From an uncultured Gammaproteobacteria bacterium (GTDB taxonomy: Bacteria > Patescibacteriota > Microgenomatia > UBA8517): a stretch of DNA of 64,000 nt. Shown in pieces: positions 3,662 to 17,900 of the stretch (within the stretch, counting starts at the first letter, position 1; each line of letters starts with the position of its first letter). Position numbers and translations under genes: made by a program. Under the pieces are notes generated by a model that ran no database searches, was not told the origin of the DNA, and worked only from the letters and a program-made list of their open reading frames with translations. The stretch is taken from assembly GCA_964502815.1 (NCBI GenBank), contig CAZCXV010000001.1:7907-71906 (forward strand). The letters run 5' to 3'.

Positions 3662-4216
3662 CTAAAGAAGGAGTTTTTTGCCAATCCTAATCGAGGATAA
3701 ATCTCGTTCCAAAATACTTTCCAAAACTTGATCTGGATTTGGCATATCTTTTTCTTTATCCCAATAGCCCAAAGTCACTAATATTTCTCTAGTAAAGTTA
3801 TTTCTCAACTCTTTGACCTGGGTTTCTTTTTCTAGGCTTTTTAAATATTTCAACAATAAATCAAAGACTTCTTCGTGCGGCACTCCTTCATGGGTTATTT
3901 TATTTACGGTCTCCAAAAAAAAGTAAGCTACTGACAGTTTTTTAAGATTTGTTCGAAGTATCGTAAAGTTTTCTACAGTTTCAGTCTCCGTGATAACCGA
4001 CATACTTTTTCCAACAGAAGCTGAAAACCTAATATGGGAAAAGCTTTCGATGTGGCCCCTTTTTCTACTTGTTGGCTTTCTGACGCCTTTGGCAATACAG
4101 ACCACCTTGCCATGGCTTTTGGAATATAAGCTTAATATTCTGTCTGCTTCACCATACGTTTTTCGGGAAAGAATAATACCTTCGTCTTGATAACTACGCA
4201 GCTTCATGGCAAACAA
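3662..4216 (-). CDS. recO: DNA repair protein RecO (short form)
   Basis: N-terminal OB-fold region GIILSRKTYGEADRILSLYSKSHGKVVCIAKGVRKPTSRKRG matches the RecO N-terminal pattern. 184 aa. Confidence 0.7.
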   Translation of the reverse strand: MFAMKLRSYQDEGIILSRKTYGEADRILSLYSKSHGKVVCIAKGVRKPTSRKRGHIESFSHIRFSASVGKSMSVITETETVENFTILRTNLKKLSVAYFFLETVNKITHEGVPHEEVFDLLLKYLKSLEKETQVKELRNNFTREILVTLGYWDKEKDMPNPDQVLESILERDLSSIRIGKKLLL

Positions 4217-6384: not shown

Positions 6385-9228
6385 CTAATATAGAACCAAC
6401 TGGAGTAATATGTTGGAATTTCCATCCAGTTGATCTGCGTATTTAATTAATTGTTTCACTCCTTTATTAAACCCAGAAAGAGTATCAGGTTTTAATTCAT
6501 AAACTGCTTTTACTACGCCACTTAATGAATCTACTGCATCAGGTCTCATCTTCACACCATCAAGAGCTTTATCTGAAAGCATTGCCAAATCATTAGTGTC
6601 CAATTTAAAAATACCATGAATTTTCTGGCCTTTTTTTAGAGCAGCTTTAACTATTGGATTGTTTGCACCTTTACGAATTACATTCGCAGGAGGCGCAACT
6701 TTTAACACTTTCGCCAGGTCAACAACAGGTACAATCATAACCACTGACATCCCAGCATCTCCATATCTCCCTTCAACAGCGTAGAAAAAGGCATTTTCTA
6801 CATCGGCTAGAGGGTTAATTAAACCTACTACATCCAAAGTCCCATGCATTTGTTCCAGCTTTGCCTCCGCCTCTCTGAGTTGTTGCAACTGCTCCGGACT
6901 AAGCATTATCTCTTGACATGAAACTAATTTCGGATCGATCATTCCCTGACACACCAACTTTTTTCCATCTTCAAAAACCAAATCTGCCTCCTGACCAATC
7001 GCTAAATCCGATATAACTCTTAAATCACTCGCTTCTACCGGATCAAGGTTTGTCTCTTCAACAAAACCACCTCTACCATCAGAGGTTCCAATTGTCCACC
7101 AGATTGTATTATCCTCACAGCTGGGTCCAGAGACTACTGTAATTTGTTCGCCTGTGTTTAAGGTAAATAGATTGTTAGCTGAAAATCTGGGATTATCACG
7201 CACAACGGTACTGGTATTTAGAGTTATTATATTTCCAAGCGCAATTGTTGAATTACTGTAACAAGAAACGTTACTTGGGTCAGGATATGGATTAAACGGT
7301 TTGTTTCTGTCTGGAGCACTATAATTCACCCCCTGGTTTAAACAAGATCTACCACCGTAACCAACAGGAGCAATTCCCCTTGGTTCCTCTCCGAAAGTAT
7401 CATACAGCCACTGCCTTTCTTCCTGCGTAAGATCAATTGGATTATACGCTCCAGGAATCATACTATGGGGACCCAGAGCCCCACTTGCACAAGTTTTTGC
7501 AACGAAAAGATCATCAACTGTCATATTACTTGTCTGATTTGGGCACCTGTGGCCACCAAAACCAACCGGGGCAATACCGGTATTTCCAAAAATCTCAAAC
7601 AGCCACTGTCTCTGATCCTGAGTTAATTCCTCTGGGTTATATCCTCCTGGAATAATTCCTCCAGGGCCAGTTTGTCCACTGCTGCAAACACTTGCCACAA
7701 AGTTATCCATAGCATTGTCATATGAATTTCCACATCTTTCTCCGCCGTAGCCGACAGAAGCAGTTCCCGAATTGCCAAAAATCTCAAACAGCCACTGCCT
7801 TTGATCTTGAGTCAGTTTTTCAGGAGGATAATTAGCAGCCAATATTCCTCCAGGGCCAGTTCCTTGTGGACAAGCTTTTGGAGAAATAACAATTGGCTCC
7901 AAGACAACCAACATGACTTCATTTGGAGTTGGTGATGGAGATGGAGATGTTGTGGGAGTTGGCTGTGGTGTTGGAATAGCGGTTGGAGTGGAAGAAGGAG
8001 TTGGTGTTGGTAGTGTATAAGTTAGTGTAAGTTTACCTGCATCTACTGAGTCCCAATTTAATGACCAAACTCTTCTATAGCTTGTACCACTTTGCAACTT
8101 TGCAATAACTGCCACATTGTTTCCTGATTGCCAGTTATCTCTATTTATTACCTGTTGGATACTGCTTGCAAGATTTGGTGTTGTATATTTTTGGGCGTAT
8201 GACCAGGTTGATAAAGCCCAGGGAATAGACGACGTAAGTACGCGACTAGATGGTGGATTAGTACTACTAAAGGCAACACTGTCATCTACATCCTCTGCTG
8301 ATAAATTAAGGGTCACTGGGCTGGTGTAACTGGTTCTTGAAGTTACTGTCAAATCAGCCTGCTGAATAATTGCTTCTTTGGGAATGTTAAAGTTGCAAAA
8401 GCGCCAACCTGCTGTCCATTTTGCACTACTGGTGTATGGACCTAAATACAAAGTACTGCTGTCATAATAGTACCCAGGGCGGTCAGATGCATCATCACAA
8501 GTTGTAAATGTAAGCATTGTCGATCCTTCTGGAGTAGGGGTAGTTGTTGGAACAGGGGTAGATGTTGGTGTTGCTGTCGGGGTTAGGGTAGGTGTGGGAG
8601 AAGCAGTTGGCGCTGACGTTGGGGAAATAGTTGGCGATGGAAGAATAGTGGGCGCAGGAGTTGTACCTGAATAAACTCCAGTTAGAATTACTTTATCTAT
8701 TTCTTTTTCTTCGGAAAGGCTGTCACTTACACCTGTAAATCTGATGTTAAAATTGGAATTTAAATATTTTTCTGGTAATAAATATTGTTCCTGGTGCCAG
8801 ATGTCGTCATTTCCGGAGCCCGCCGTCCAATAATAAATCTGGTTCCAGAAAGAACCATCAAAAATTTCAACTTTTAAATACTCACCGGCATCAAGATCAT
8901 TATCTACATACCTCCAAAAATTTAGGGTTACGTCAGAATATTGGCCTAAGTCCAAAGGTGAAGTTAAAAGTATCTTGCAGCCATCAAGCCGACAATAATC
9001 ACCATTGGCTACATCATTAGAGGAGGCTTGGCCAGGAATTTGTAACTCATCCGGGGACTCAGATGTAAAAGAGTATCTACCGGTTTGCGTCCATTTATTT
9101 AAATTATCAAACTCCTCAGAAAAAATAGTTACACCTGTAGACTGTGCTAAAATGTTGTTTCCAGAAAAAAACAGGAGGACTAAAAATGTGAAGAGAGAAA
9201 AGAAGATTAACTTTCTGTTTAACTTCAT
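6385..9228 (-). CDS. Secreted multi-domain surface protein with Pro/Thr-rich linkers and three Cys-containing ~55-aa tandem repeats
   Basis: Signal peptide MKLNRKLIFFSLFTFLVLLFFSGNNILAQS. There are two PT linkers (TTPAPTILPSPTISPTSAPTASPTPTLTPTATPTSTPVPTTTPTPEGS and LPTPTPSSTPTAIPTPQPTPTTSPSPSPTPN). Three repeats carry the motif YNPxxLTQ(D/E)(Q/E)RQWL(F/Y)(E/D)(I/T)FG...GxAPVG(Y/F)GG(x)RC. No C-terminal TM or sortase signal. Confidence 0.8.
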   Translation of the reverse strand: MKLNRKLIFFSLFTFLVLLFFSGNNILAQSTGVTIFSEEFDNLNKWTQTGRYSFTSESPDELQIPGQASSNDVANGDYCRLDGCKILLTSPLDLGQYSDVTLNFWRYVDNDLDAGEYLKVEIFDGSFWNQIYYWTAGSGNDDIWHQEQYLLPEKYLNSNFNIRFTGVSDSLSEEKEIDKVILTGVYSGTTPAPTILPSPTISPTSAPTASPTPTLTPTATPTSTPVPTTTPTPEGSTMLTFTTCDDASDRPGYYYDSSTLYLGPYTSSAKWTAGWRFCNFNIPKEAIIQQADLTVTSRTSYTSPVTLNLSAEDVDDSVAFSSTNPPSSRVLTSSIPWALSTWSYAQKYTTPNLASSIQQVINRDNWQSGNNVAVIAKLQSGTSYRRVWSLNWDSVDAGKLTLTYTLPTPTPSSTPTAIPTPQPTPTTSPSPSPTPNEVMLVVLEPIVISPKACPQGTGPGGILAANYPPEKLTQDQRQWLFEIFGNSGTASVGYGGERCGNSYDNAMDNFVASVCSSGQTGPGGIIPGGYNPEELTQDQRQWLFEIFGNTGIAPVGFGGHRCPNQTSNMTVDDLFVAKTCASGALGPHSMIPGAYNPIDLTQEERQWLYDTFGEEPRGIAPVGYGGRSCLNQGVNYSAPDRNKPFNPYPDPSNVSCYSNSTIALGNIITLNTSTVVRDNPRFSANNLFTLNTGEQITVVSGPSCEDNTIWWTIGTSDGRGGFVEETNLDPVEASDLRVISDLAIGQEADLVFEDGKKLVCQGMIDPKLVSCQEIMLSPEQLQQLREAEAKLEQMHGTLDVVGLINPLADVENAFFYAVEGRYGDAGMSVVMIVPVVDLAKVLKVAPPANVIRKGANNPIVKAALKKGQKIHGIFKLDTNDLAMLSDKALDGVKMRPDAVDSLSGVVKAVYELKPDTLSGFNKGVKQLIKYADQLDGNSNILLQLVLY
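7320..7900 (-). repeat. In-frame coding tandem repeat (3 units, ~165-180 bp each) within the secreted-protein gene
   Basis: DNA units recur around 7385-7440, 7595-7640 and 7775-7830 (ccactgcctttcttcctg / ccactgtctctgatcctg / ccactgcctttgatcttg). They encode the three ...RQWLF/YE... repeats. Confidence 0.7.
7905..8015 (-). repeat. Low-complexity Pro/Thr/Ser linker-coding region 2 (GGTGTTGG/GGAGTTGG-type DNA periodicity)
   Basis: Encodes LPTPTPSSTPTAIPTPQPTPTTSPSPSPTPN. Confidence 0.7.
8521..8660 (-). repeat. Low-complexity Pro/Thr/Ser linker-coding region 1
   Basis: Encodes TTPAPTILPSPTISPTSAPTASPTPTLTPTATPTSTPVPTTTPTPEGS. Confidence 0.7.
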
Positions 9229-9326
9229 ACTTACCTAACTAGGTAATAGTAATAGTCATTGTCACTATTAGCAATTCATATCGAATGTGAATCAATCCTG
9301 ATCTGAGCACAATTTTTTATCTAAAT

Positions 9327-9950
9327 TTATTTTCTTTTTGTCTCACTTTTTCGATTTACATCTTTTTCAATTAGTTTTCTAATATATTCCGAACGGGAAG
9401 TTTCTGATTTGGCTATTAAGTCGAGTTGATTTCTAAGGTTACTTGGCAAAATCAAAGTAAATCTACTTTCAAGCCAAACCTGCACACTTTCAAACGCCCA
9501 TGAAAGTTGTTCTTTTAAATCCTCGTCAGTATAGTCAACAATTAATAGTTTTGATTCTACTTCTCCAGCTCCAACAAGAAAAATATTACTGGTTTGTTTT
9601 TGATACTTAAGTGCAATTACCGGTTTTTTCCAAATCAATGATTGTTGGATTAACTGACCTATACTGGTACTGGAAACAGAAATTTCCATCACAGCCACAT
9701 CGGATCTAAAAAGGCTGTTTATCATTTTTTTGTAGTGATTCTTCCATTTATCACGGGGAAGAGTAAAAAGTGGCCCGTTGAAATCAAGAATCCAGCGCGA
9801 AGTTAATTCGTGTCCCAAACCTTCGATAGTTTTGCCAATTAATTGATAGTTTTTTCCAAATTCATCTAACTGACTAGGAGTGGCATTAAAAAACACCTTC
9901 ATTTGGTGAACTATTTTACAACAATTGTCAAGCTGCGCCTTTGCCGGCAA
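9327..9950 (-). CDS. Two-domain protein: N-terminal nucleoside-2-deoxyribosyltransferase/SLOG-like Rossmann domain fused to a C-terminal ribbon-helix-helix (CopG/Arc-like) DNA-binding domain
   Basis: The N-terminus follows the NDT-like pattern. It reads VFFNATPS...SDVAVMEISVSSTSIGQLIQQSLIWKKPVIAL, against iYLAGPfFs...sDvviAnld..DsGTafEiGyAyAlgKPVial. Gln sits at the position of the catalytic Glu. The C-terminus RFTLILPSNLRNQLDLIAKSETSRSEYIRKLIEKD is a classic beta-alpha-alpha RHH. The start could be the downstream Met (MKVFF, 9902). Confidence 0.55.
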   Translation of the reverse strand: MPAKAQLDNCCKIVHQMKVFFNATPSQLDEFGKNYQLIGKTIEGLGHELTSRWILDFNGPLFTLPRDKWKNHYKKMINSLFRSDVAVMEISVSSTSIGQLIQQSLIWKKPVIALKYQKQTSNIFLVGAGEVESKLLIVDYTDEDLKEQLSWAFESVQVWLESRFTLILPSNLRNQLDLIAKSETSRSEYIRKLIEKDVNRKSETKRK

Positions 9951-10617
9951 CCATCACCCAGGGGGTTTTAAGTAAAACTAAGACATCTAGAAGTATTGAT
10001 CTTTTCCTGGCATAGTAGGCGTCCATTTCTATTCTTTTGTCAAAAGCCACTTCACTTCGGCCCGATACTTGCCAAAAGCCGGTAATTCCAGGTCTTACTG
10101 TCAAAACATCTTTTAGTAAGTGCTTTTTTTCTGGAAATTTGGCAAACTGTTTTTCCAACTCCTCATGGTAATATGGCCTGGGGCCTACAATGCTCATTTC
10201 TCCTTTTAAGACATTAATAAGTTGGGGAATTTCATCAATTGAGTGCCTCCTGATAAATTTTCCCACTGGGGTAACTCTGGGATCATTCATAATTTTATAG
10301 TTGCCTCCTTTTTGTTGTTCTTCGTAGGCTTTTTTGAATCTGGGGTCAGTTTGTAAAAGTTGATAGGCATTAACTATCATTGACCTAAATTTATAGGCAT
10401 AGAAAAGCTTGCCAAGTCTACCTACCCTTTTTGGCGTATCTGCAAAAACTGGGCCTTGGGAAGTAAATTTTATAGCAAGGGCTGTAATTATGAGGATGGG
10501 AGAAAAAAGAATCAATAAAAATATTGATCCAGCTAGATCCATTATCCTTTTTGTTACCTCAAAAAACATAATTTGGGCAGAGAAATTATACCACGGTCTG
10601 CTATTCAGTATACTCAT
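9928..10617 (-). CDS. Initiating phosphoglycosyl transferase (bacterial sugar transferase family; WbaP/PglC-like polyprenyl-phosphate hexose-1-phosphate transferase)
   Basis: The N-terminus is hydrophobic. The C-terminal catalytic region reads FRSMIVNAY...DEIPQLINVLKGEMSIVGPRPY...RPGITGFWQVSGRS, which matches Bac_transf. Confidence 0.85.
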   Translation of the reverse strand: MSILNSRPWYNFSAQIMFFEVTKRIMDLAGSIFLLILFSPILIITALAIKFTSQGPVFADTPKRVGRLGKLFYAYKFRSMIVNAYQLLQTDPRFKKAYEEQQKGGNYKIMNDPRVTPVGKFIRRHSIDEIPQLINVLKGEMSIVGPRPYYHEELEKQFAKFPEKKHLLKDVLTVRPGITGFWQVSGRSEVAFDKRIEMDAYYARKRSILLDVLVLLKTPWVMVAGKGAA

Positions 10618-11689
10618 CGTGATACTGTTCTAGTTTCTTATACAAATCCTTCACCTTGCTCGTTTCACTCAGTGGACAAACTAAAAGTCCATTATGGGTA
10701 TCAATTACAGCCATATTTGACAATCCAATCACAGTAATGATTTTGCCTTTAGGGCCATAAATCAAGTTTTCTTGGGAGTCAAGAAAGGCGGTATCAGCTC
10801 CTCCTTCTACAATGGTAGTTTTAGTGTCAGTAATTAAAGACCGATAAAACCACTCCCAGGAAATTCCGATGTCTTCCCAACCCATATCACAAGCAATCGT
10901 TGCTCTCACGTTTCCGGGAAGTTTCTCAAAAATTCCATATTCTATCGAATCAGAGGTAAATTTATGGTATTCGCTTTTTAATACTTTATGCTGATCTTTA
11001 CTACCCCAAGCTTTAACAATTTTTTGTAAGCCTTCATAAATCTTTGGCTGGAATTCTTTATAGTAACCAAGCATTATATCTGTTTTCCAAACCCTGTAGC
11101 CAGTATTTATTAACCACTGTCTAGATTTAAATAGTTCATTGGCCACTTTCTCGTCTGGCTTTTCGACATGTTTTTCAATTTGCTTTATCTGAAAGCCATT
11201 TATCTTTTCTATCGTTTTTCCCAGTTTTACCCAACCATTGTGGACACTAGGGTATGATGGCTTGGCATCAACTGATACAATCAGGCCAGTTTTTTCCGCC
11301 ACTTCTCCTGCTGCCACAACGGCATTTAAAAATACAGATTCTTTGGCAATTAAATGCTTTGCCCAAGAAATAAGTACAGTTTCTCCGGGAAAATATTTAT
11401 TAACAACTGCAGTTGCCAAACCACAAGCTGCTAAAATATCCTTTCTTTCTGGTTCTGCAATGATATTAGTTCTGGGAATTTCTGGAGCTTGCCTTCGAAC
11501 ATATGAAACATATCTGTCTTCAGTGGAGACAAATATTTCCTCTGGGTCAAACTCTTTTCGAAATCTTTGATAGGTCATTTGGAAAAAAGATTTACCATTA
11601 ACTAAAGGTACGAAGGGCTTTGGGGTCGACTTACGACTTACGGGCCATAGCCTTGTTCCATGACCCCCGGCAAATATTACAACTTTCAT
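10601..11689 (-). CDS. Mannose-1-phosphate guanylyltransferase (GDP-mannose pyrophosphorylase) family nucleotidyltransferase
   Basis: N-terminus KVVIFAGGHGTRLWPVSRKSTPKPFVPL matches the ManC/CpsB signature. Confidence 0.8.
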   Translation of the reverse strand: MKVVIFAGGHGTRLWPVSRKSTPKPFVPLVNGKSFFQMTYQRFRKEFDPEEIFVSTEDRYVSYVRRQAPEIPRTNIIAEPERKDILAACGLATAVVNKYFPGETVLISWAKHLIAKESVFLNAVVAAGEVAEKTGLIVSVDAKPSYPSVHNGWVKLGKTIEKINGFQIKQIEKHVEKPDEKVANELFKSRQWLINTGYRVWKTDIMLGYYKEFQPKIYEGLQKIVKAWGSKDQHKVLKSEYHKFTSDSIEYGIFEKLPGNVRATIACDMGWEDIGISWEWFYRSLITDTKTTIVEGGADTAFLDSQENLIYGPKGKIITVIGLSNMAVIDTHNGLLVCPLSETSKVKDLYKKLEQYHDEYTE

Positions 11690-12765
11690 ATGTTTTTAAT
11701 TGCCTTAAGAAATTCTTTTTTAAATCTTTCTTTAGAAAATCTCTTAGCGTTTTCTATTATAATCTTAACACTAAACTTATATTCGTGAAAAGAGTTTAGT
11801 GTTTTAATTAAAGCATTTTTTTCTTGTTTGTCAAAAAATAGTCCCGTTTTGCCTTCAATTATAGTGTCCAGTGCTCCCCCACTTTTGTAAGCAATAACTG
11901 GCTTGCCAAAAGTTTGGGCTTCCACTGCAGTTAAGCCAAAATCTTCATTTTGAGGAAAAATTAAGGCTTTACAGTTTTGATAATAGAAAGACAAATCCTC
12001 TTCTTCTACATAACCTGTAAAGTAAATATTGGATTTTGCCATATATTTTAGTCTCTCTTCTTGGCTTCCTGTACCAACAACCACTAGAGGCAGTTCTAAC
12101 TCATTAAATGCTTCAACTACTAAATCAACCTTTTTATAAGGGACAAGTCTGGAAACAACTAAAAAGTAGTCTTTTGGCACATCTGATGTTTTATTCTTTT
12201 CATCCGTTTTCAATCCTTCAACTGGAGGAAAAATTACTACCGAATCCCTGCCGTAATATTTTTTAGTTCTTTTCTGAACTTCTGTTGAAATTGCAATAAT
12301 TTTATCAGGTCTTGCAGCTGCAATTTTGTCCCATCTTTTTAGATAGTTAATTAACGGCCTGGTGACAACCTGCAGGGTCTCACCCTGCAGGTACTCATTG
12401 TAATGGCTCCACAAATATCTGGTTGGAGTAAGAAGATAGCATATATGCTTTGTTGGAGGTTTGGTGATTATACCTTTGGCAGCTTCTGAAGTAACCGAGA
12501 TTACTAAATCATATTGATCAAAATTGAACTGCTCAAAGGCAATTGGCATAAGCAGTGGATAAAACTCGTGCTTGTCTTTAGCGAAAGGAAAACGCTGTAA
12601 AAACGAAGTAAAGACTTTTGGAAATACTAAGGCCCATTTAGCCCTATCGGAATTATAAACAGAGGTGTAAAGAGGTGCGTCGGGAAACATATCATGCAAG
12701 GCAAGTAAAACTCTCTCCGCTCCACCCCATTTGTTTACCCGGTCATAGACTATTGATACCTTCAT
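11686..12765 (-). CDS. Glycosyltransferase family 4 (GT-B); carries one in-frame copy of the 23-bp palindrome
   Basis: C-terminal GT4 motif EDFGLTAVEAQTFGKPVIAYKSGGALDTI. The palindrome encodes YLQGETLQV. Confidence 0.85.
   Translation of the reverse strand: MKVSIVYDRVNKWGGAERVLLALHDMFPDAPLYTSVYNSDRAKWALVFPKVFTSFLQRFPFAKDKHEFYPLLMPIAFEQFNFDQYDLVISVTSEAAKGIITKPPTKHICYLLTPTRYLWSHYNEYLQGETLQVVTRPLINYLKRWDKIAAARPDKIIAISTEVQKRTKKYYGRDSVVIFPPVEGLKTDEKNKTSDVPKDYFLVVSRLVPYKKVDLVVEAFNELELPLVVVGTGSQEERLKYMAKSNIYFTGYVEEEDLSFYYQNCKALIFPQNEDFGLTAVEAQTFGKPVIAYKSGGALDTIIEGKTGLFFDKQEKNALIKTLNSFHEYKFSVKIIIENAKRFSKERFKKEFLKAIKNI
12369..12391. repeat. 23-bp perfect hairpin palindrome CCTGCAGGGT-CTC-ACCCTGCAGG, in frame inside GT4 gene 11686..12765 (copy 1 of 3)
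   Basis: Arms 10/10 complementary. GC-rich in an AT-rich background. Near-identical copies at 27870..27892 and 31526..31548. Confidence 0.85.
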
Positions 12766-13877
12766 GAAAGAACACTATTGTATACCTCCAAAGTTTCCTG
12801 AGCCATCTTTTTCCAGGAGTAATTACTTACAAACTTTTTGGCTTTTGCGATTATTTCTTTTCTTCTTGGCTCGCTCATTTCTTTGGCAATTTCCATTTTT
12901 CTGGCAATATCTGAAAAATCAAAAGGATTAAAGTAAATTGCATTGTCTTTATAAATTTCTTTGAAAACAGGAATTTCTGATGCTAAAAGTAAAGTTTCTG
13001 ATGTCATTGCTTCAAGTCCTTGGAGTCCAAAGCCTTCCATAATAGATGGATAAACAAAAGCAATCGAGTTTTTATAGAGCACTGCTATCTCTTCGTCTGG
13101 CACAAAACCAAGAAGCTTGACATTATCTTTGGCGTGCAAATCGCCTACTAATTTTTGCAGTCTTTCTAAAAAGACGTCTCTCGCGCCAGATATTGCCAAT
13201 GTACTTCGTGATTGGACAACTGCTTCAATTGCTCTTTTTAAGTTTTTGTGAGGATAGGCATTTCCGATATACAGGAAATATTTCCTTGGTTCAAGATTGT
13301 ACTTAGTCAGTATTTCCCTATCATTGTTTTTTTCTTTTATGCCAGGCAAATCAACGCCTTCGTAAGTAACAAACACTTTTTTGGGATCAAGTTTGTAAGT
13401 TTTTATGACATCTTCTTTTACAAAGTTTGAAGGAACAATAATTGCTGCAGCTTTTTTAACAGCTTCCAAAAATACTTTTTTGTAGCCAAGTCTTTTAAGA
13501 TAGTAAAATGCCGGGTTTAAAGTTGTCGCCTCAAGGCCTTTTTGCCGGTGCATGAGTAAATCATGAATTGTCACCACCAATTTCCCTTTAAACCTAATTG
13601 GGACATTGAAATGCAAAAAGTGGCTAAGATCTGGCTTTTCAGCCAAGATTATCTTTGGTAGTAACAGTTGTTCTCCCAATGAATAATGTTGAAAGTCAGC
13701 CAGTACTTTCTTAAAGTTTTTTGGTAAAACCAATTCTTCAAAGTATTTCTTCCTAAGAAGAAGTACATAGTCATTAGCTTTGTCTAATTTCGCAAGTTGG
13801 TCTATTAAGTTGACTGCATATCTACCAAGTCCAGCATTTTCAAGTCCATAGAGCCTGGCATCAATTAGGATCTTCAT
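12762..13877 (-). CDS. Glycosyltransferase family 4
   Basis: SIMEGFGLQGLEAM motif. 371 aa. Confidence 0.85.
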   Translation of the reverse strand: MKILIDARLYGLENAGLGRYAVNLIDQLAKLDKANDYVLLLRKKYFEELVLPKNFKKVLADFQHYSLGEQLLLPKIILAEKPDLSHFLHFNVPIRFKGKLVVTIHDLLMHRQKGLEATTLNPAFYYLKRLGYKKVFLEAVKKAAAIIVPSNFVKEDVIKTYKLDPKKVFVTYEGVDLPGIKEKNNDREILTKYNLEPRKYFLYIGNAYPHKNLKRAIEAVVQSRSTLAISGARDVFLERLQKLVGDLHAKDNVKLLGFVPDEEIAVLYKNSIAFVYPSIMEGFGLQGLEAMTSETLLLASEIPVFKEIYKDNAIYFNPFDFSDIARKMEIAKEMSEPRRKEIIAKAKKFVSNYSWKKMAQETLEVYNSVLS

Positions 13878-14767
13878 TTTACAATTATCCTCTTAATGTT
13901 TCTCACTATCTTCATTAGCCTTATTGCAAAAAACACCAAATAATTTAAAACTGCTGGATATTTGTCCCACAAAAACTTTCGGTAAAAAATAGCCATTGAT
14001 TCAACTCCTGTTCCGCTAAAAACATTCTTCACTTTCTTTTTGGTTTGTTTTTTAAGATGGATAATTGAAACTTTTGGAAAGTAAATTATTTTGTAGCCAG
14101 CTTGCTTTATTTTATATGAAAGGTCAATATCTTCCCCATCCAAGAAATATTCCTCACTAAACCAACCAACTTCATCAAGTACTTTTTTTGGCGCCATACA
14201 ATAAGCTCCCTGCAAAACATCTATCTCATGCGTGGTGTCAGCTGACAGATAGCCATACCAATATTTAGAGAAAGCTTTTGATTTTGGAAACAGTCTATCG
14301 AGTCCTGAAAAGTGAGTCAAGGCAACCCAAGGCGTAGGGAAAGATCTTCTAGCATCTTTATCTAAACTGCCATCGGGCAAGATTGTTTTACAGGTCAAGG
14401 CGCCAACATTCGGATGGTCTTCTAAATACTTAATGCTTTCTTTTAGGGTGTCTGGATTCATTAAGGTGTCGCTATTGAGAAACAAAATATATCTTCCAAT
14501 GCAGAAGTCTTTAGCAGCATTATTACCTTTGGCAAAACCCAGGTTTGCATTGTTTTTTACCAGCTTGATTTCTGGCTTGACAGTTTTTTCTATCAATTTT
14601 TCTACTTCTTCTATAGAGCCGTCTATCGAGCCATTGTCCACCAAAAGTACTTCAAAATTAAGCTCATCTTTGACTTTTATCAATGAATTCAGGCAGTTTA
14701 AAGTTACATCTTTAGTGTTGTAGTTTAAAACTATTACTGAAAGAGCTGGGTTGGATTTTTTTTCCAT
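13874..14767 (-). CDS. Glycosyltransferase family 2
   Basis: LSVIVLNYNTKDVTLNCLNSL...VDNGSIDGS and DxD-region motifs. Confidence 0.85.
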   Translation of the reverse strand: MEKKSNPALSVIVLNYNTKDVTLNCLNSLIKVKDELNFEVLLVDNGSIDGSIEEVEKLIEKTVKPEIKLVKNNANLGFAKGNNAAKDFCIGRYILFLNSDTLMNPDTLKESIKYLEDHPNVGALTCKTILPDGSLDKDARRSFPTPWVALTHFSGLDRLFPKSKAFSKYWYGYLSADTTHEIDVLQGAYCMAPKKVLDEVGWFSEEYFLDGEDIDLSYKIKQAGYKIIYFPKVSIIHLKKQTKKKVKNVFSGTGVESMAIFYRKFLWDKYPAVLNYLVFFAIRLMKIVRNIKRIIVK

Positions 14768-14781
14768 AAGCTTAAGGGTAA

Positions 14782-16002
14782 TTATTTCTTGTCTTTAGCT
14801 ATTTGTGCAATTTTTTTGACATCTTTATAAATGCTGTCATGCATCTCAACAATTGCCTTCCAATCAAATTTTTCTTTGACAAACTTTTGGCCTGCTTCCC
14901 CTATTTTTTTAGCTAGTTGTGGATTTTTAAGAAGAGAAATAGTTTTTCTTGCCAGTCCTTGCATACTATCTTCAATCAAAACATGTTTGCCATTTTCCAC
15001 TCCAAGGCCTGCAACCCCAGTAGAAGTTGAAACTGTGGGCAGTCCTGCAGCCATAGCCTCAAGAATCTTGAGTCTTGTTCCCCCTGAACCCCTAATTGGG
15101 GCAACCATGACATAGGCTCCTAAGTAAGCGTCTCTAGCCTCGGGGATATTTTCCGAAATTTCAATGTCACTTTCTCTATTGGCCATCTGCTTAATGCTTT
15201 CAGGAATCATTCTGCCAACAATCCACAATTTGGCGTGTTTGATTTCTTTGTGAACAACTGGCCAAACTTCACTAATAAGCAAATCTGCAGCCTCTCTATT
15301 TTGCATCCATTCAAAATTGGTTACCCCGTACATCACTCTTGGCGGATCGTATTTTTTCACTTCCTTTTCAGTGTAGTAAGCTGTATCTACCCCATTTGGA
15401 ATAACGCCAATTTCCTCTCCACCAACAAGTTCCTGCATAATAACTTTATCATCTGGTGAAACGGTAAAGAGTTTTGTCGCCTTTTTCCAAAAGTATATTT
15501 CCCAAAACTTGAGTTTTAAAACATCAATCATGAAAAAAGGCCTGAGGAAGGGGTTTACCTCATTTTTGACATGGTGTTCATAGACTTTATGCCAAATAGT
15601 TTGCTCTACTTGAATTGAAGGGACATCGGTCTTTGGAATATGGGGCATGACATAGAAAGCTTCGGCATGAATTAGATCATAATCCCCTTTTTCTAATTCT
15701 TTTTTAACAGCCCACCTTTCTTGAAAAGAAAAGTTGCGAATCAAAAGAAGAGGGAAGGGAGAAAAGACTGAAAGTAGGATATTCCTGGCTGTCCAAGGGG
15801 ATTTGGGACGCTTAAAAACCATTACTTTTTTACAGTATTTTTCGAGTTCTGGAATAAATCTTCTCTCAGATTCATCTTTAATAAGAGAAAAAAGGGTAAT
15901 TTTGTGCTCCTGGGAGAGAAACTTAACAATGTTGTACCACCTAGTTTGACCACCAGAGGTCTGGGTGTTAGGCAAGAATGGGACAAGCATCAGAATTTTC
16001 AT
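14782..16002 (-). CDS. Glycosyltransferase family 4
   Basis: GGTRLKILEAMAAGLPTVSTSTGVAGLGVENGKHVL. Confidence 0.85.
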   Translation of the reverse strand: MKILMLVPFLPNTQTSGGQTRWYNIVKFLSQEHKITLFSLIKDESERRFIPELEKYCKKVMVFKRPKSPWTARNILLSVFSPFPLLLIRNFSFQERWAVKKELEKGDYDLIHAEAFYVMPHIPKTDVPSIQVEQTIWHKVYEHHVKNEVNPFLRPFFMIDVLKLKFWEIYFWKKATKLFTVSPDDKVIMQELVGGEEIGVIPNGVDTAYYTEKEVKKYDPPRVMYGVTNFEWMQNREAADLLISEVWPVVHKEIKHAKLWIVGRMIPESIKQMANRESDIEISENIPEARDAYLGAYVMVAPIRGSGGTRLKILEAMAAGLPTVSTSTGVAGLGVENGKHVLIEDSMQGLARKTISLLKNPQLAKKIGEAGQKFVKEKFDWKAIVEMHDSIYKDVKKIAQIAKDKK

Positions 16003-16059
16003 GATTACCTTTAGTATAGCAAACAGAAGGCGATTTTCTGTGCTAAAATTTCAAACACT

Positions 16060-16341
16060 ATGTTATTTGAAAGACTGAAAGACCATATTGAAGAATTAAG
16101 ACAGATTAAGGAAAAATTGTATAAAAGCGGCAGAATTGATGTGAAACACCCTCTTTATGAAAAAAATTCCTACGTCTACATTAAATTGTTAAATGCCACA
16201 GATATGAGAGATGTCGTTGATGCCGGGATCTTAGAAGGGTTGGATCCTGATAAATTCATTACCGAGATTATAAAGAAAACCGGAAGATCAACCATAGAAT
16301 CCTTCGCCCAATACCCAGAGGAGTATGATTATGGCTACTAA
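16060..16341 (+). CDS. Hypothetical 93-aa soluble protein (plus-strand orphan inside minus-strand cluster)
   Basis: Intergenic ORF that does not overlap its neighbours. No recognisable domain. Confidence 0.4.
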   Translation: MLFERLKDHIEELRQIKEKLYKSGRIDVKHPLYEKNSYVYIKLLNATDMRDVVDAGILEGLDPDKFITEIIKKTGRSTIESFAQYPEEYDYGY

Positions 16342-16358
16342 AGTTCCTGCAAGGTAGC

Positions 16359-17900
16359 CTATTCTCGGGAAACTGGAAGATGTAAATCAATAACTATATA
16401 TTTATCGGTTTTTTCTATTGTTTTATATTTCTTCATTAAACTATTAGTGTCATTATCATAGTTTACCGACACATAGTAATCAGCTCCCCTGGCAATCATT
16501 TTTTCTACTGATTCATCAATCACTGGATAGCCATATCTATTTGTCTGGTAAAGAAAAGCTGTGTCCCCATTATAAGGTGCTATTATTACTGCATCCTTTG
16601 GAGTTAATCTCTGAGCTGCTTTACCTGCTTCGATTATTTCATAGTGATTTATTTTGTAATACTCTCTGGCTTGATAAAAACCCAAAAGAAGCATGAGAAA
16701 AATTACAAAGACAGATAGAAATCTAGAAATTGCCAGATTAAACTGCTTATTTGTCCAGAGTGATATCATGCCTTGAGCTAACAAGAGACATATTGAAGGG
16801 ACAATTAATATCTGGTAATAGTCATGCCTGACGCTGGCTGTTGCCACTATAGTGACATATAAAATGCTTCCAAAAAAGAAAATAATGTTAAAAAGATTAT
16901 TTTTCTTGGTCATTGCAAGACCAAGAGCAAAAGGAATAAGCCCCCAGATGCCAAGAATTAGTTTTCCAATTCTCTCGCCAAAAATCCAAAACCAAAAAGC
17001 TGGCCTGAACCTTATTTTGTCGCTATTGAAGGCCCAATCAAAATGCGGAATACCTTGGGGAAAATTATTAACCCAAATCCTCCAGGCAAAAAACGGCACA
17101 ATTGCCAAAAGGGCAAAGACAAAGATTTCAGTTTTTTTGTAAAGCCAAGCCAAACCATATTTATTTATTAGAAGATACAAAAACACAGGAGAGTAGAAAA
17201 AGACAAACGGTTTAATTAGAGTGGCCAAAGCAAAAAGAATCCCAGAAACAATTAAGGGTAGAATTTTTTCTTTGTCGATGTATCTTGAAAAGAAATACAA
17301 AGAAGACACCAAAAACATCACTCCAATTGGCTCGGGTAAAATTACCCTTGTAAAGTAAATGTTATAGGGAATAAAAAGATAGAAAAAAGAAGCCAGTATC
17401 CCTCCCCAATCATTAATGTATTTTTTACCAAGCAAATACAAAAAGAAAGCTGTGGTAAGCGCAGAAAAGATGGTCACCAATCTTCCCCAGACTGTAAAGG
17501 AATCTGCCTCAATAAAGACAACTGAAACTGGATTTTTCTTTTGTATTAGTAATAATTTGTTGAAAGAAAATTGTGGAAGTTTTTGAATATGGAAATTCTT
17601 TTCCAAAGCTGCATGAATGACATTATAAACAGGAAACTCAACCATCCTTAAACCGATCGGATTTAAAATTCCAGTTTGGATTCTTGAAACATCGTAATAT
17701 CTAGGAAGTAGGATATTTACTCCTTCATCCAGGTATATCCTTGAAACAGAGGCCGTGTCTGCTTGCCTCCAGGAGTGCCAATCGGCAATTGGGAAGTTTA
17801 TATGCCAAGTCCTTACTAAAAAACCAAATAGAAAAATAGTAATTAAGGTCGATGTCTGGAAAAACTTATTATTTATTATGTTTATCATTATTACTTCCAA
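16359..17900 (-). CDS. Polytopic membrane glycosyltransferase, GT-C fold (GT39/ArnT/PMT_2-like)
   Basis: About 12 predicted TM helices. N-terminal loop reads WHINFPIADWHSWRQADTASVSRIY, as in ArnT-like enzymes. Confidence 0.65.
   Translation of the reverse strand: MEVIMINIINNKFFQTSTLITIFLFGFLVRTWHINFPIADWHSWRQADTASVSRIYLDEGVNILLPRYYDVSRIQTGILNPIGLRMVEFPVYNVIHAALEKNFHIQKLPQFSFNKLLLIQKKNPVSVVFIEADSFTVWGRLVTIFSALTTAFFLYLLGKKYINDWGGILASFFYLFIPYNIYFTRVILPEPIGVMFLVSSLYFFSRYIDKEKILPLIVSGILFALATLIKPFVFFYSPVFLYLLINKYGLAWLYKKTEIFVFALLAIVPFFAWRIWVNNFPQGIPHFDWAFNSDKIRFRPAFWFWIFGERIGKLILGIWGLIPFALGLAMTKKNNLFNIIFFFGSILYVTIVATASVRHDYYQILIVPSICLLLAQGMISLWTNKQFNLAISRFLSVFVIFLMLLLGFYQAREYYKINHYEIIEAGKAAQRLTPKDAVIIAPYNGDTAFLYQTNRYGYPVIDESVEKMIARGADYYVSVNYDNDTNSLMKKYKTIEKTDKYIVIDLHLPVSRE

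Follow-up and report, generated by a model that had tools for sequence, protein, structure and literature searches.

What kind of protein results when an enzyme-like domain is joined to a DNA-binding module, and is it still an enzyme, part of one, or a regulator? The question is raised by a small minus-strand gene at 9327-9902 of the window, by which we mean the whole 64,000-nt stretch of contig CAZCXV010000001.1 (positions 7,907 to 71,906) from a member of the Patescibacteriota, class Microgenomatia. Its product appears to combine an N-terminal domain of the DNPH1/Rcl type, belonging to the nucleoside 2-deoxyribosyltransferase (NDT) superfamily and most likely non-catalytic, with a C-terminal ribbon-helix-helix (RHH) domain.

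Gene and start codon

An open reading frame (ORF) with a TTG start spans 9327-9950 on the minus strand. It had been read from the sequence as a protein-coding gene whose start overlaps the stop codon of the neighbouring sugar-transferase gene, Bac_transf. The first half of that reading stood up, a homology search with the window protein returning 22 relatives (E values 4e-117 to 1e-17); the overlap did not. Full-length homologues are 183-191 aa long, have the N-terminus MKV[FY]F and align with an ATG at 9902. Likewise, the Joint Genome Institute (JGI) gene call on L010, a 98%-identical metagenomic contig, gives a product of 191 aa that begins 25 nt past Bac_transf. Because the homologues all open with MKV[FY]F and the L010 gene call has 191 aa, we assigned the start to this ATG, which in the window lies 25 nt past the Bac_transf stop codon (9928-9930). 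Choosing the longest ORF produced both the 16-codon extension to the TTG and the apparent overlap, which are artefacts. Base composition around the gene showed nothing that points to a foreign insert.

9327..9902, minus strand: coding sequence of the DNPH1-like/RHH fusion, 191 aa, with ATG at 9902-9900 and stop codon TAA at 9329-9327
9903..9950, minus strand: in-frame TTG extension, probably untranslated; its 16 residues are absent from all homologues, and it overlaps the end of Bac_transf

The N-terminal domain resembles DNPH1/Rcl

9468..9902, minus strand: N-terminal alpha/beta domain of the DNPH1/Rcl type (NDT superfamily), residues 1-145, assigned from AlphaFold2, Foldseek and profiles and predicted to be non-catalytic

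An AlphaFold2 model built from the orthologue alignment (mean predicted local distance difference test score, pLDDT, 85.2) was compared with the PDB using Foldseek. The best 50 matches were all DNPH1/Rcl chains (E 6.6e-8 to 6e-6), with target-normalised template modelling (TM) scores of 0.75-0.88 over ~140 aligned columns (0.84-0.87 at the best E value). A profile of 33 paralogues matched Rcl in the PDB with an E value of 8.8e-20 and human DNPH1 with ~1e-15, but reached the classical NDT 7m5h with an E value of only 0.29. Comparison of the orthologue profile with human DNPH1 by hhalign gave 95% probability (E 3e-8); the human sequence used here was entered by hand, and the outcome agrees with the PDB-derived alignments. 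As a single sequence, the window protein also found rat Rcl/DNPH1 as its best PDB match, at a marginal E value of 0.12.

Among the curated families, PF05014 was found in 18 of the 33 paralogues. The SLOG family LDcluster4 gave marginal matches in three of them (best E 0.0016) and none for the window protein, and ThsB_TIR and TIR_2 appeared in a few paralogues at a marginal ~0.005. For the window protein itself, the sub-threshold NCBIfam matches were aCcr1 (E 0.0042) and NikR (E 0.04). Profiles and model thus identify the domain as a DNPH1/Rcl-type member of the NDT superfamily. The earlier note on this sequence had described an NDT/SLOG-like Rossmann domain; membership of the NDT superfamily holds, for ~145 residues, whereas the SLOG label was dropped, DNPH1/Rcl being by far the best match and LDcluster4 marginal. 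The profile and structure searches that had been suggested as a check therefore recovered the DNPH1/Rcl fold and homology, and no unrelated fold.

The catalytic triad is replaced and the phosphate serines are kept

Human DNPH1 is a homodimer with the catalytic triad Tyr24/Asp80/Glu104; Glu104 makes a covalent glycosyl-enzyme intermediate, and its loss inactivates the enzyme (PMC10603095). The 5′-phosphate is bound by Ser98 together with Ser128′ of the adjacent subunit, while His56, Glu55 and Arg30 assist (PMC10603095). In the alignment, residues of DNPH1 correspond to those of the window protein as follows.

DNPH1 Tyr24: Phe4
DNPH1 Ser28: Thr8
DNPH1 Arg30: Ser10
DNPH1 Glu55 and His56: Ser35 and Arg36
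DNPH1 Asp80: Met60
DNPH1 Asp88: Asp68
DNPH1 Ser98: Ser78
DNPH1 Tyr103: Gln83
DNPH1 Glu104 (rat Rcl E93): Leu84
DNPH1 Ser128: Ser117
9651..9659, minus strand: codons GGT CAG TTA for Gly82-Gln83-Leu84, with Leu84 at the position of DNPH1 Glu104 and Gln83 at that of Tyr103

Three external alignments and the internal alignment of the paralogues concur in placing Leu84 at the nucleophile position, and the register is fixed because Gly82 is invariant and the paralogues read G-[HFY]-E against G-Q-L without a gap. A catalytic Glu replaced by Gln, as first supposed, is therefore not what the protein has: Gln83 lies one residue before the Glu position, at a place otherwise occupied by an aromatic residue. 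The broader suggestion that the catalytic Glu is absent and the domain non-catalytic was strengthened, since Tyr, Asp and Glu of the triad are all lost while the serines are kept.

Conservation was followed in the orthogroup of the window protein. Ser78 is invariant there, and Ser occupies this position in ~94% of sequences family-wide; Ser117 lies within an E-S-K motif conserved in the orthogroup. Orthologues with 45-64% identity retain SVSSTSxGQ(L/V)IQ, Ser78, Asp68, Tyr57 and Glu116-Ser117-Lys118, and conservation extends to polar positions close to the base pocket (Trp53, His56, Tyr57, Gln83, Gln86 and Glu116-Ser117-Lys118). Judged by its sequences, the orthogroup is under selection. Because the triad is gone and both serines of the phosphate clamp are retained, the domain is most likely a non-catalytic nucleotide binder, that is, a ligand-binding pseudoenzyme.

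Alternatively, the protein could have kept activity as an N-glycosidase or transferase by means of another nucleophile or base (e.g. Asp68, Glu116 or His56) and be guided by its RHH to DNA or DNA ends. In line with this, Asp68, Glu116, His56 and Tyr57 are invariant or nearly so in the orthogroup, and several related loci have dnaX-ybaB-recR replication/repair neighbours. We nevertheless consider such an activity distinctly improbable: DNPH1 is inactivated by the loss of Glu104 (PMC10603095), here the whole triad is hydrophobic, and the closed 5′-phosphate pocket of DNPH1 would be unsuited to a polymer.

The C-terminal tail carries the ribbon-helix-helix signature

9360..9467, minus strand: RHH domain, residues 146-181, with strand RFTLILP, helix A NLRNQLDLIAK, turn SETS and helix B RSEYIRKLIEKD
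9330..9359, minus strand: basic C-terminal tail VNRKSETKRK, variable across the family in the alignment

That the last ~40 residues are RHH-like, with the strand and helices named at the outset, was borne out by Pfam matches of the paralogues, by a profile of the tails and by the register with CopG. The window protein matched Pfam RHH_5 with an E value of 0.14, and its paralogues matched RHH_1 (down to E 2.9e-5) and RHH_3 (0.0044). Searched against the PDB, a profile of 34 tails found 3h87_C (E 0.0032), which we take to be a VapB antitoxin chain, a CopG-family regulator (0.57) and NikR (0.62). In hhalign the tail aligned in register with CopG (E 2.9e-5), Arg147 and Thr149 falling on CopG Arg4 and Thr6, presumably the base-contacting residues; the match to Arc was weaker. 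The tail has the CopG-type strand-helix-turn-helix signature, including the G-x-S-R-S turn, and the match is of the moderate strength usual for a 40-residue domain. In the full-length AlphaFold2 monomer, an extended segment is followed by helices at 154-164 and 170-190. All 272 family members compared have R-F-[TN], and helix B opens with R-[SA] in nearly all of them.

The fusion defines a large family in Patescibacteria

An exhaustive profile search over 1.84 billion cluster representatives retrieved 1739 members at E ≤ 1e-3, 833 at ≤ 1e-10 and 117 at ≤ 1e-30; among the 150 matches listed, nearly all were full-length, with ~185 aa. Because the listed representatives are nearly all full-length two-domain matches, these sequences mark the DNPH1-like/RHH fusion as a stable and abundant architecture. 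Almost all members came from metagenome-assembled genomes of Patescibacteria, including Beckwithbacteria, Chisholmbacteria, Shapirobacteria and Pacebacteria.

Within the 272 full-length members sampled, the Glu104 equivalent is kept in 56% and missing in 44%, and most Glu-bearing members keep the Tyr too. The Asp80 equivalent is hydrophobic in every one of them, so that even the Glu-bearing members do not look like canonical DNPH1 enzymes. Databases list members as 'hypothetical', 'ribbon-helix-helix domain-containing', 'nucleoside 2-deoxyribosyltransferase' or '2′-deoxynucleoside 5′-phosphate N-hydrolase'. Given that the Asp80 equivalent is missing from every sampled member and the nucleophile Glu from 44%, the two enzyme names probably misdescribe many of these proteins, and family genes should not carry the name 'nucleoside 2-deoxyribosyltransferase'.

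One 401-aa member, P0030, has a DNPH1-like domain on each side of a weak HTH_31 match (XRE-like, E 0.03), and no RHH could be recognized up to the end of its sequence. It may be a true fusion or a gene-call artefact; its helix-turn-helix-like segment in place of the RHH lends weak support to the idea that DNA binding is the point of the fusion.

A literature search found no description of a deoxyribosyltransferase/DNPH1-RHH fusion or of this family, and the PDB profile search no solved structure with both domains. The parts are known folds; the architecture, the arrays of pseudoenzyme and enzyme paralogues and the linkage to recR and methyltransferase genes described below appear to be undescribed.

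Orthologues lie in tandem arrays of paralogues

In all ten independent contexts of orthologues that were retrieved (L001, L003, L004, L006, L008, L011, L023, L025, L026 and L027, with 45-64% identity to the window protein), the gene is part of a tandem array of three to six co-directional family genes, most of which overlap by 4 bp. One of the searches for related loci used a single narrow N-terminal pattern and retrieved 10 loci. When the 33 array members of six loci were clustered, they fell into recurrent orthogroups, of which OG2 includes the window protein. Each of the six clustered arrays holds exactly one OG2 member, which always lacks the Glu (G-Q-L or G-Q-V). Its place in the order is conserved too: one or two Glu-bearing 'RFNFF' genes come before it, and other Glu-less or Glu-bearing types usually follow.

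The surroundings of the arrays often suggest nucleotide or DNA metabolism. In seven of the 10 contexts the array is immediately preceded by recR and/or a gene for a class-I S-adenosylmethionine (SAM) methyltransferase (radical-SAM or unknown in two), and two loci have the full dnaX-ybaB-recR context. Some arrays are flanked by thyA, folA, dcd, dCMP deaminase, guaA, dNK or PfkB genes, and none of the 10 is adjoined by glycan genes. Immediately upstream methyltransferase and/or recR genes were seen in L001, L004, L006, L008 and L026. Distant solitary members (27-37% identity) are also preceded by a methyltransferase gene (Methyltransf_11/25 type) and/or recR, as follows.

L014, 7213-7983: methyltransferase/recR gene upstream of a solitary copy
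L015, 7377-7985: the same
L016, 7163-7993: the same
L020, 7156-7977: the same

As far as gene neighbourhoods can tell, the recR/methyltransferase linkage points to nucleotide or DNA metabolism rather than to glycan synthesis.

This organization suggests another role, in which the protein joins Glu-bearing paralogues, as a subunit without catalytic activity, in a hetero-oligomeric complex for nucleotide processing, pairing with them through the DNPH1-type interface and/or RHH heterodimers. The RHH would then serve chiefly for assembly or for tethering to DNA, and bases of (modified) nucleotides would be cleaved or exchanged by the complex for salvage or pool sanitation. The coupled arrays of three to six paralogues in all 10 relatives are what such a complex would predict, as is the single OG2 member, in conserved order, in each of the six clustered arrays. 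Moreover, 56% of the 272 members keep the nucleophile Glu and most of these the Tyr, nucleotide-metabolism genes lie beside some arrays, and the active site of DNPH1 is itself completed in trans by a Ser of the neighbouring subunit (PMC10603095). However, the gene is solitary in the 64-kb window, yet intact and well conserved, so it may act without partners, provided that none are encoded elsewhere in the genome; the Asp80 equivalent is hydrophobic in all members, which makes the Glu-bearing paralogues non-canonical; and the strictly conserved DNA-contact positions of the ribbon favour real DNA binding. We hold the subunit model, the main rival to the reading favoured below, to be possible but doubtful.

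Of eight relatives inspected, seven have a terminator-like element, a GC-rich hairpin with a T-run after it, at the junction of the Glu-bearing 'RFNFF' genes and the Glu-less orthologue, directly in front of the latter's ATG; the window lacks it. The T-run reaches right up to the ATG in L008 and L011 and leaves no space for a promoter or a free ribosome-binding site. From its sequence and position, the element could be an attenuator or a translational control element.

L001, 7980-8000: hairpin and T-run
L003, 5975-6000: hairpin and T-run
L004, 5925-5950: hairpin and T-run
L006, 3910-3934: hairpin and T-run
L008, 7178-7203: hairpin and T-run
L011, 1056-1079: hairpin and T-run
L023, 58-82: hairpin and T-run

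In the window the gene is the last of a glycan cluster

9928..10617, minus strand: Bac_transf, initiating sugar-phosphate transferase (Pfam PF02397, E 1.8e-59), last of the glycan genes
6385..9228, minus strand: gene downstream, for a signal-peptide-bearing product of 947 aa whose C-terminus carries a Tox-REase-9 domain (residues 860-935; PF15650, E 6e-8, passing the curated cut-off)
9231..9270, no strand assigned: cluster of 7-bp inverted repeats, candidate operator, in the 98-bp spacer directly upstream of the toxin-gene ATG at 9228

A six-frame hmmsearch of the 64-kb window with filters off found no further family members. The window likewise holds no dnaX, ybaB, recR or array-linked methyltransferase gene, apart from one weak, unrelated methyltransferase match. 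Instead, a glycan cluster with overlapping start and stop codons runs on the minus strand from 16002 to 9928, in the order GT4, GT2, GT4, GT4, ManC-like nucleotidyltransferase and Bac_transf; it is preceded by a PMT_2-type glycosyltransferase gene at 16359-17900 (minus strand). All genes from 16002 to 9327 lie on the minus strand. The fusion gene, once placed at the start of this operon, is therefore the last of the co-directional cluster. A promoter/terminator scan of 9000-10800 detected no terminator-like site between Bac_transf and the fusion gene, and promoter-like sites in that region were at or below chance, including one match that overlaps the inverted repeats. With no terminator and 25 nt between it and Bac_transf, the fusion gene is probably co-transcribed with the six glycan genes.

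Judged by its domains, the 947-aa protein encoded downstream is a secreted polymorphic-toxin-like nuclease. It also contains Pro/Thr-rich linkers and three ~55-aa repeats (GPGG..YNPE.LTQ[DE]QRQWL..FG). No small immunity-type ORF follows the toxin gene, the next genes encoding a 700-aa DUF4012 protein and then RecO (3662-4216). A permissive Rfam scan of 8800-10400 returned only a chance snoRNA match and no known RNA element in the spacer.

The spacer contains TTACCTA and TAGGTAA, two bases apart, at 9231-9237/9240-9246, and TAATAGT at both 9244-9250 and 9250-9256, each paired with ACTATTA at 9264-9270. As candidate repressor sites before the toxin gene we list TTACCTAACTAGGTAA and TAATAGT...ACTATTA. 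Three 7-bp pairs arise in ~1.1% of shuffles or of 98-bp windows, which is mildly unusual. Relative to the fusion gene, the repeats are on the downstream side, in front of the next gene and a long way from the glycan promoter. That inverted repeats exist here had been noted before, with coordinates one base off; the operator role proposed for them found no comparative support. A weak pair of matches near 40.3 kb was rejected, as it lies inside a coding region and is arranged differently.

A dedicated regulator of the glycan operon, as the earlier note had envisaged, or a repressor of the adjacent toxin gene acting through the 9231-9270 repeats, would fit the probable co-transcription with the six glycan genes and the three repeat pairs (~1% by chance) immediately upstream of the toxin ATG. 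Yet the gene stands at the 3′ end of the operon and not at its promoter, the half-sites are enriched neither in relatives nor in the window, and the overlapping promoter-like match is at chance level. Above all, the glycan/toxin arrangement is shared only by the near-identical strain contig L010, which differs from the window at four positions in ~780 nt and is hence uninformative for conservation, whereas the 10 independent contexts are arrays without adjoining glycan genes. We regard either dedicated role as improbable. Of the one-component, nucleotide-responsive regulator that had been suggested for this locus, the architecture, a putative sensor domain plus an RHH, was supported; its assignment to the glycan locus was not, the conserved context being the paralogue array.

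The neighbouring toxin gene raises a further possibility, namely that the protein is an immunity or antitoxin-type protein, either as an RHH antitoxin-like module or as one of several immunity paralogues in an array. Antitoxins often contain RHH domains, and the tail found its best PDB match in 3h87_C, the presumed VapB chain; besides the adjacent Tox-REase-9 gene, an RHS-repeat protein follows the array in L001. There (11614-16564), the genes after an array of six encode a small secreted protein and then an RHS/YD-repeat protein of > 2000 aa, of the polymorphic-toxin type, which makes it a second example of family genes with a toxin gene after them. No toxin-type Pfam domain was found in the other nine contexts except a faint MafB19-deaminase match in L004, which is overlain by a strong match to dCMP deaminase. 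An immunity gene would normally come after its toxin gene, but the fusion gene precedes it, and a PADLOC scan of the window protein gave no match. Furthermore, the arrays of all 10 relatives are syntenic and housekeeping-like, often beside recR and mostly without a toxin gene, and the toxin next door is of the secreted polymorphic type and encoded downstream, not a type II partner. An immunity function is thus very improbable indeed.

A nucleotide-responsive DNA-binding protein?

From the fold, the homology, the substitutions, the RHH register, the conservation and the contexts, we infer ligand binding, dimerization, DNA binding and a coupling between them. Specifically, we propose with moderate confidence that the protein is a dimer, that it binds a nucleoside monophosphate and leaves it intact, and that ligand occupancy is coupled to DNA binding by its RHH. 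Dimerization would involve both the DNPH1-like interface and the RHH tail. By analogy with DNPH1, such a dimeric mode is likely, because one serine of the phosphate clamp acts in trans. A ligand resembling a nucleoside 5′-monophosphate would be held, uncleaved, at the dimer interface, and its occupancy would alter DNA binding by the RHH ribbon, which carries the invariant Arg147-Phe-Thr149. The protein would then be a one-component, nucleotide-responsive DNA-binding protein. In the window, its only candidate DNA target is the inverted-repeat cluster before the secreted nuclease-toxin gene.

Several results weigh against this proposal. On its own, the window protein falls below every curated Pfam and NCBIfam threshold, so that the domain assignments rest on family profiles and predicted structure. 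No model of an RHH ribbon dimer was obtained; folded alone without an alignment, the tail came out as a single long helix, an uninformative result. Across paralogues, the presumed base-contact residues of the ribbon are identical, which is unexpected for regulators with different operators and equally compatible with non-specific DNA binding or an assembly role. Translationally coupled arrays of three to six paralogues resemble subunits or isozymes rather than independent regulators. Finally, the repeat motifs occur elsewhere in the window (≤ 3 mismatches) at chance level, and their half-sites are not enriched in the loci of eight relatives, which share no operator motif.

Both lines of thought might be joined in a more speculative model, which we think unlikely. 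Here, a lineage-specific module of Microgenomates-type Patescibacteria, with one to six paralogues and, in many of the loci sampled, recR and/or a SAM methyltransferase gene beside it, would form mixed oligomers of Glu-bearing catalytic and Glu-less sensor subunits on DNA and serve nucleotide-pool surveillance and salvage, each paralogue being specific for another nucleotide taken from hosts, possibly a modified one. The window protein would be an escaped sensor subunit, now a stand-alone nucleotide-responsive repressor of the nuclease toxin and/or the glycan operon. If so, nucleotide availability would be linked to attack on neighbouring cells.

Patescibacteria, the candidate phyla radiation (CPR), have tiny genomes and few recognizable regulators, and rely on scavenged nucleotides. 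With at least 833 representatives, and three to six tandem copies in genomes of < 1000 genes, the family must matter to their biology; it is a large and conspicuous unknown in these genome-reduced, nucleotide-scavenging bacteria. Should the Glu-less members sense nucleotides, they would represent a new class of one-component regulators built on a pseudo-DNPH1 domain and offer a handle on how Patescibacteria gauge nucleotide supply. Should the arrays form mixed enzyme/sensor complexes on DNA, these would be a new type of nucleotide-sanitation machinery.

Comparison with known systems

The closest known relatives are DNPH1/Rcl proteins, including the bacterial MilB/BlsM-type relatives, with which the window protein has in common the fold, sequence homology, both phosphate serines and the Asp88 equivalent, Asp68. 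It differs from them in having Phe, Met and Leu for Tyr24, Asp80 and Glu104, and in its C-terminal RHH; in the PDB profile search, no solved DNPH1 or NDT bears an extra RHH. Classical NDTs (PF05014) belong to the same superfamily and are matched by 18 of the 33 paralogues, but the window protein lies below threshold and lacks the nucleophile. The SLOG/LOG- and TIR-like sensors of conflict systems are more distant, with related Rossmann-like folds that often bind nucleotides; matches to them are far weaker than those to DNPH1, and there is neither a PADLOC match nor a defence-gene neighbourhood.

On the DNA-binding side, the tail has the strand-helix-turn-helix register of CopG/Arc/MetJ and VapB/ParD. 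In contrast to CopG-type RHH domains, which stand alone as proteins of 45-90 residues or are N-terminal, it is an appendage on a 145-aa domain and has no cognate toxin. The nearest parallels in organization are NikR and enterobacterial PutA, in which RHH DNA binding is coupled to a fused small-molecule or enzyme domain. Their RHH is N-terminal and their sensors are ACT-like and a proline dehydrogenase respectively, whereas the window protein has a C-terminal RHH and a DNPH1-like candidate sensor. By analogy, the logic of joining an RHH to a small-molecule domain has its precedents in NikR and PutA and would be no surprise in principle.

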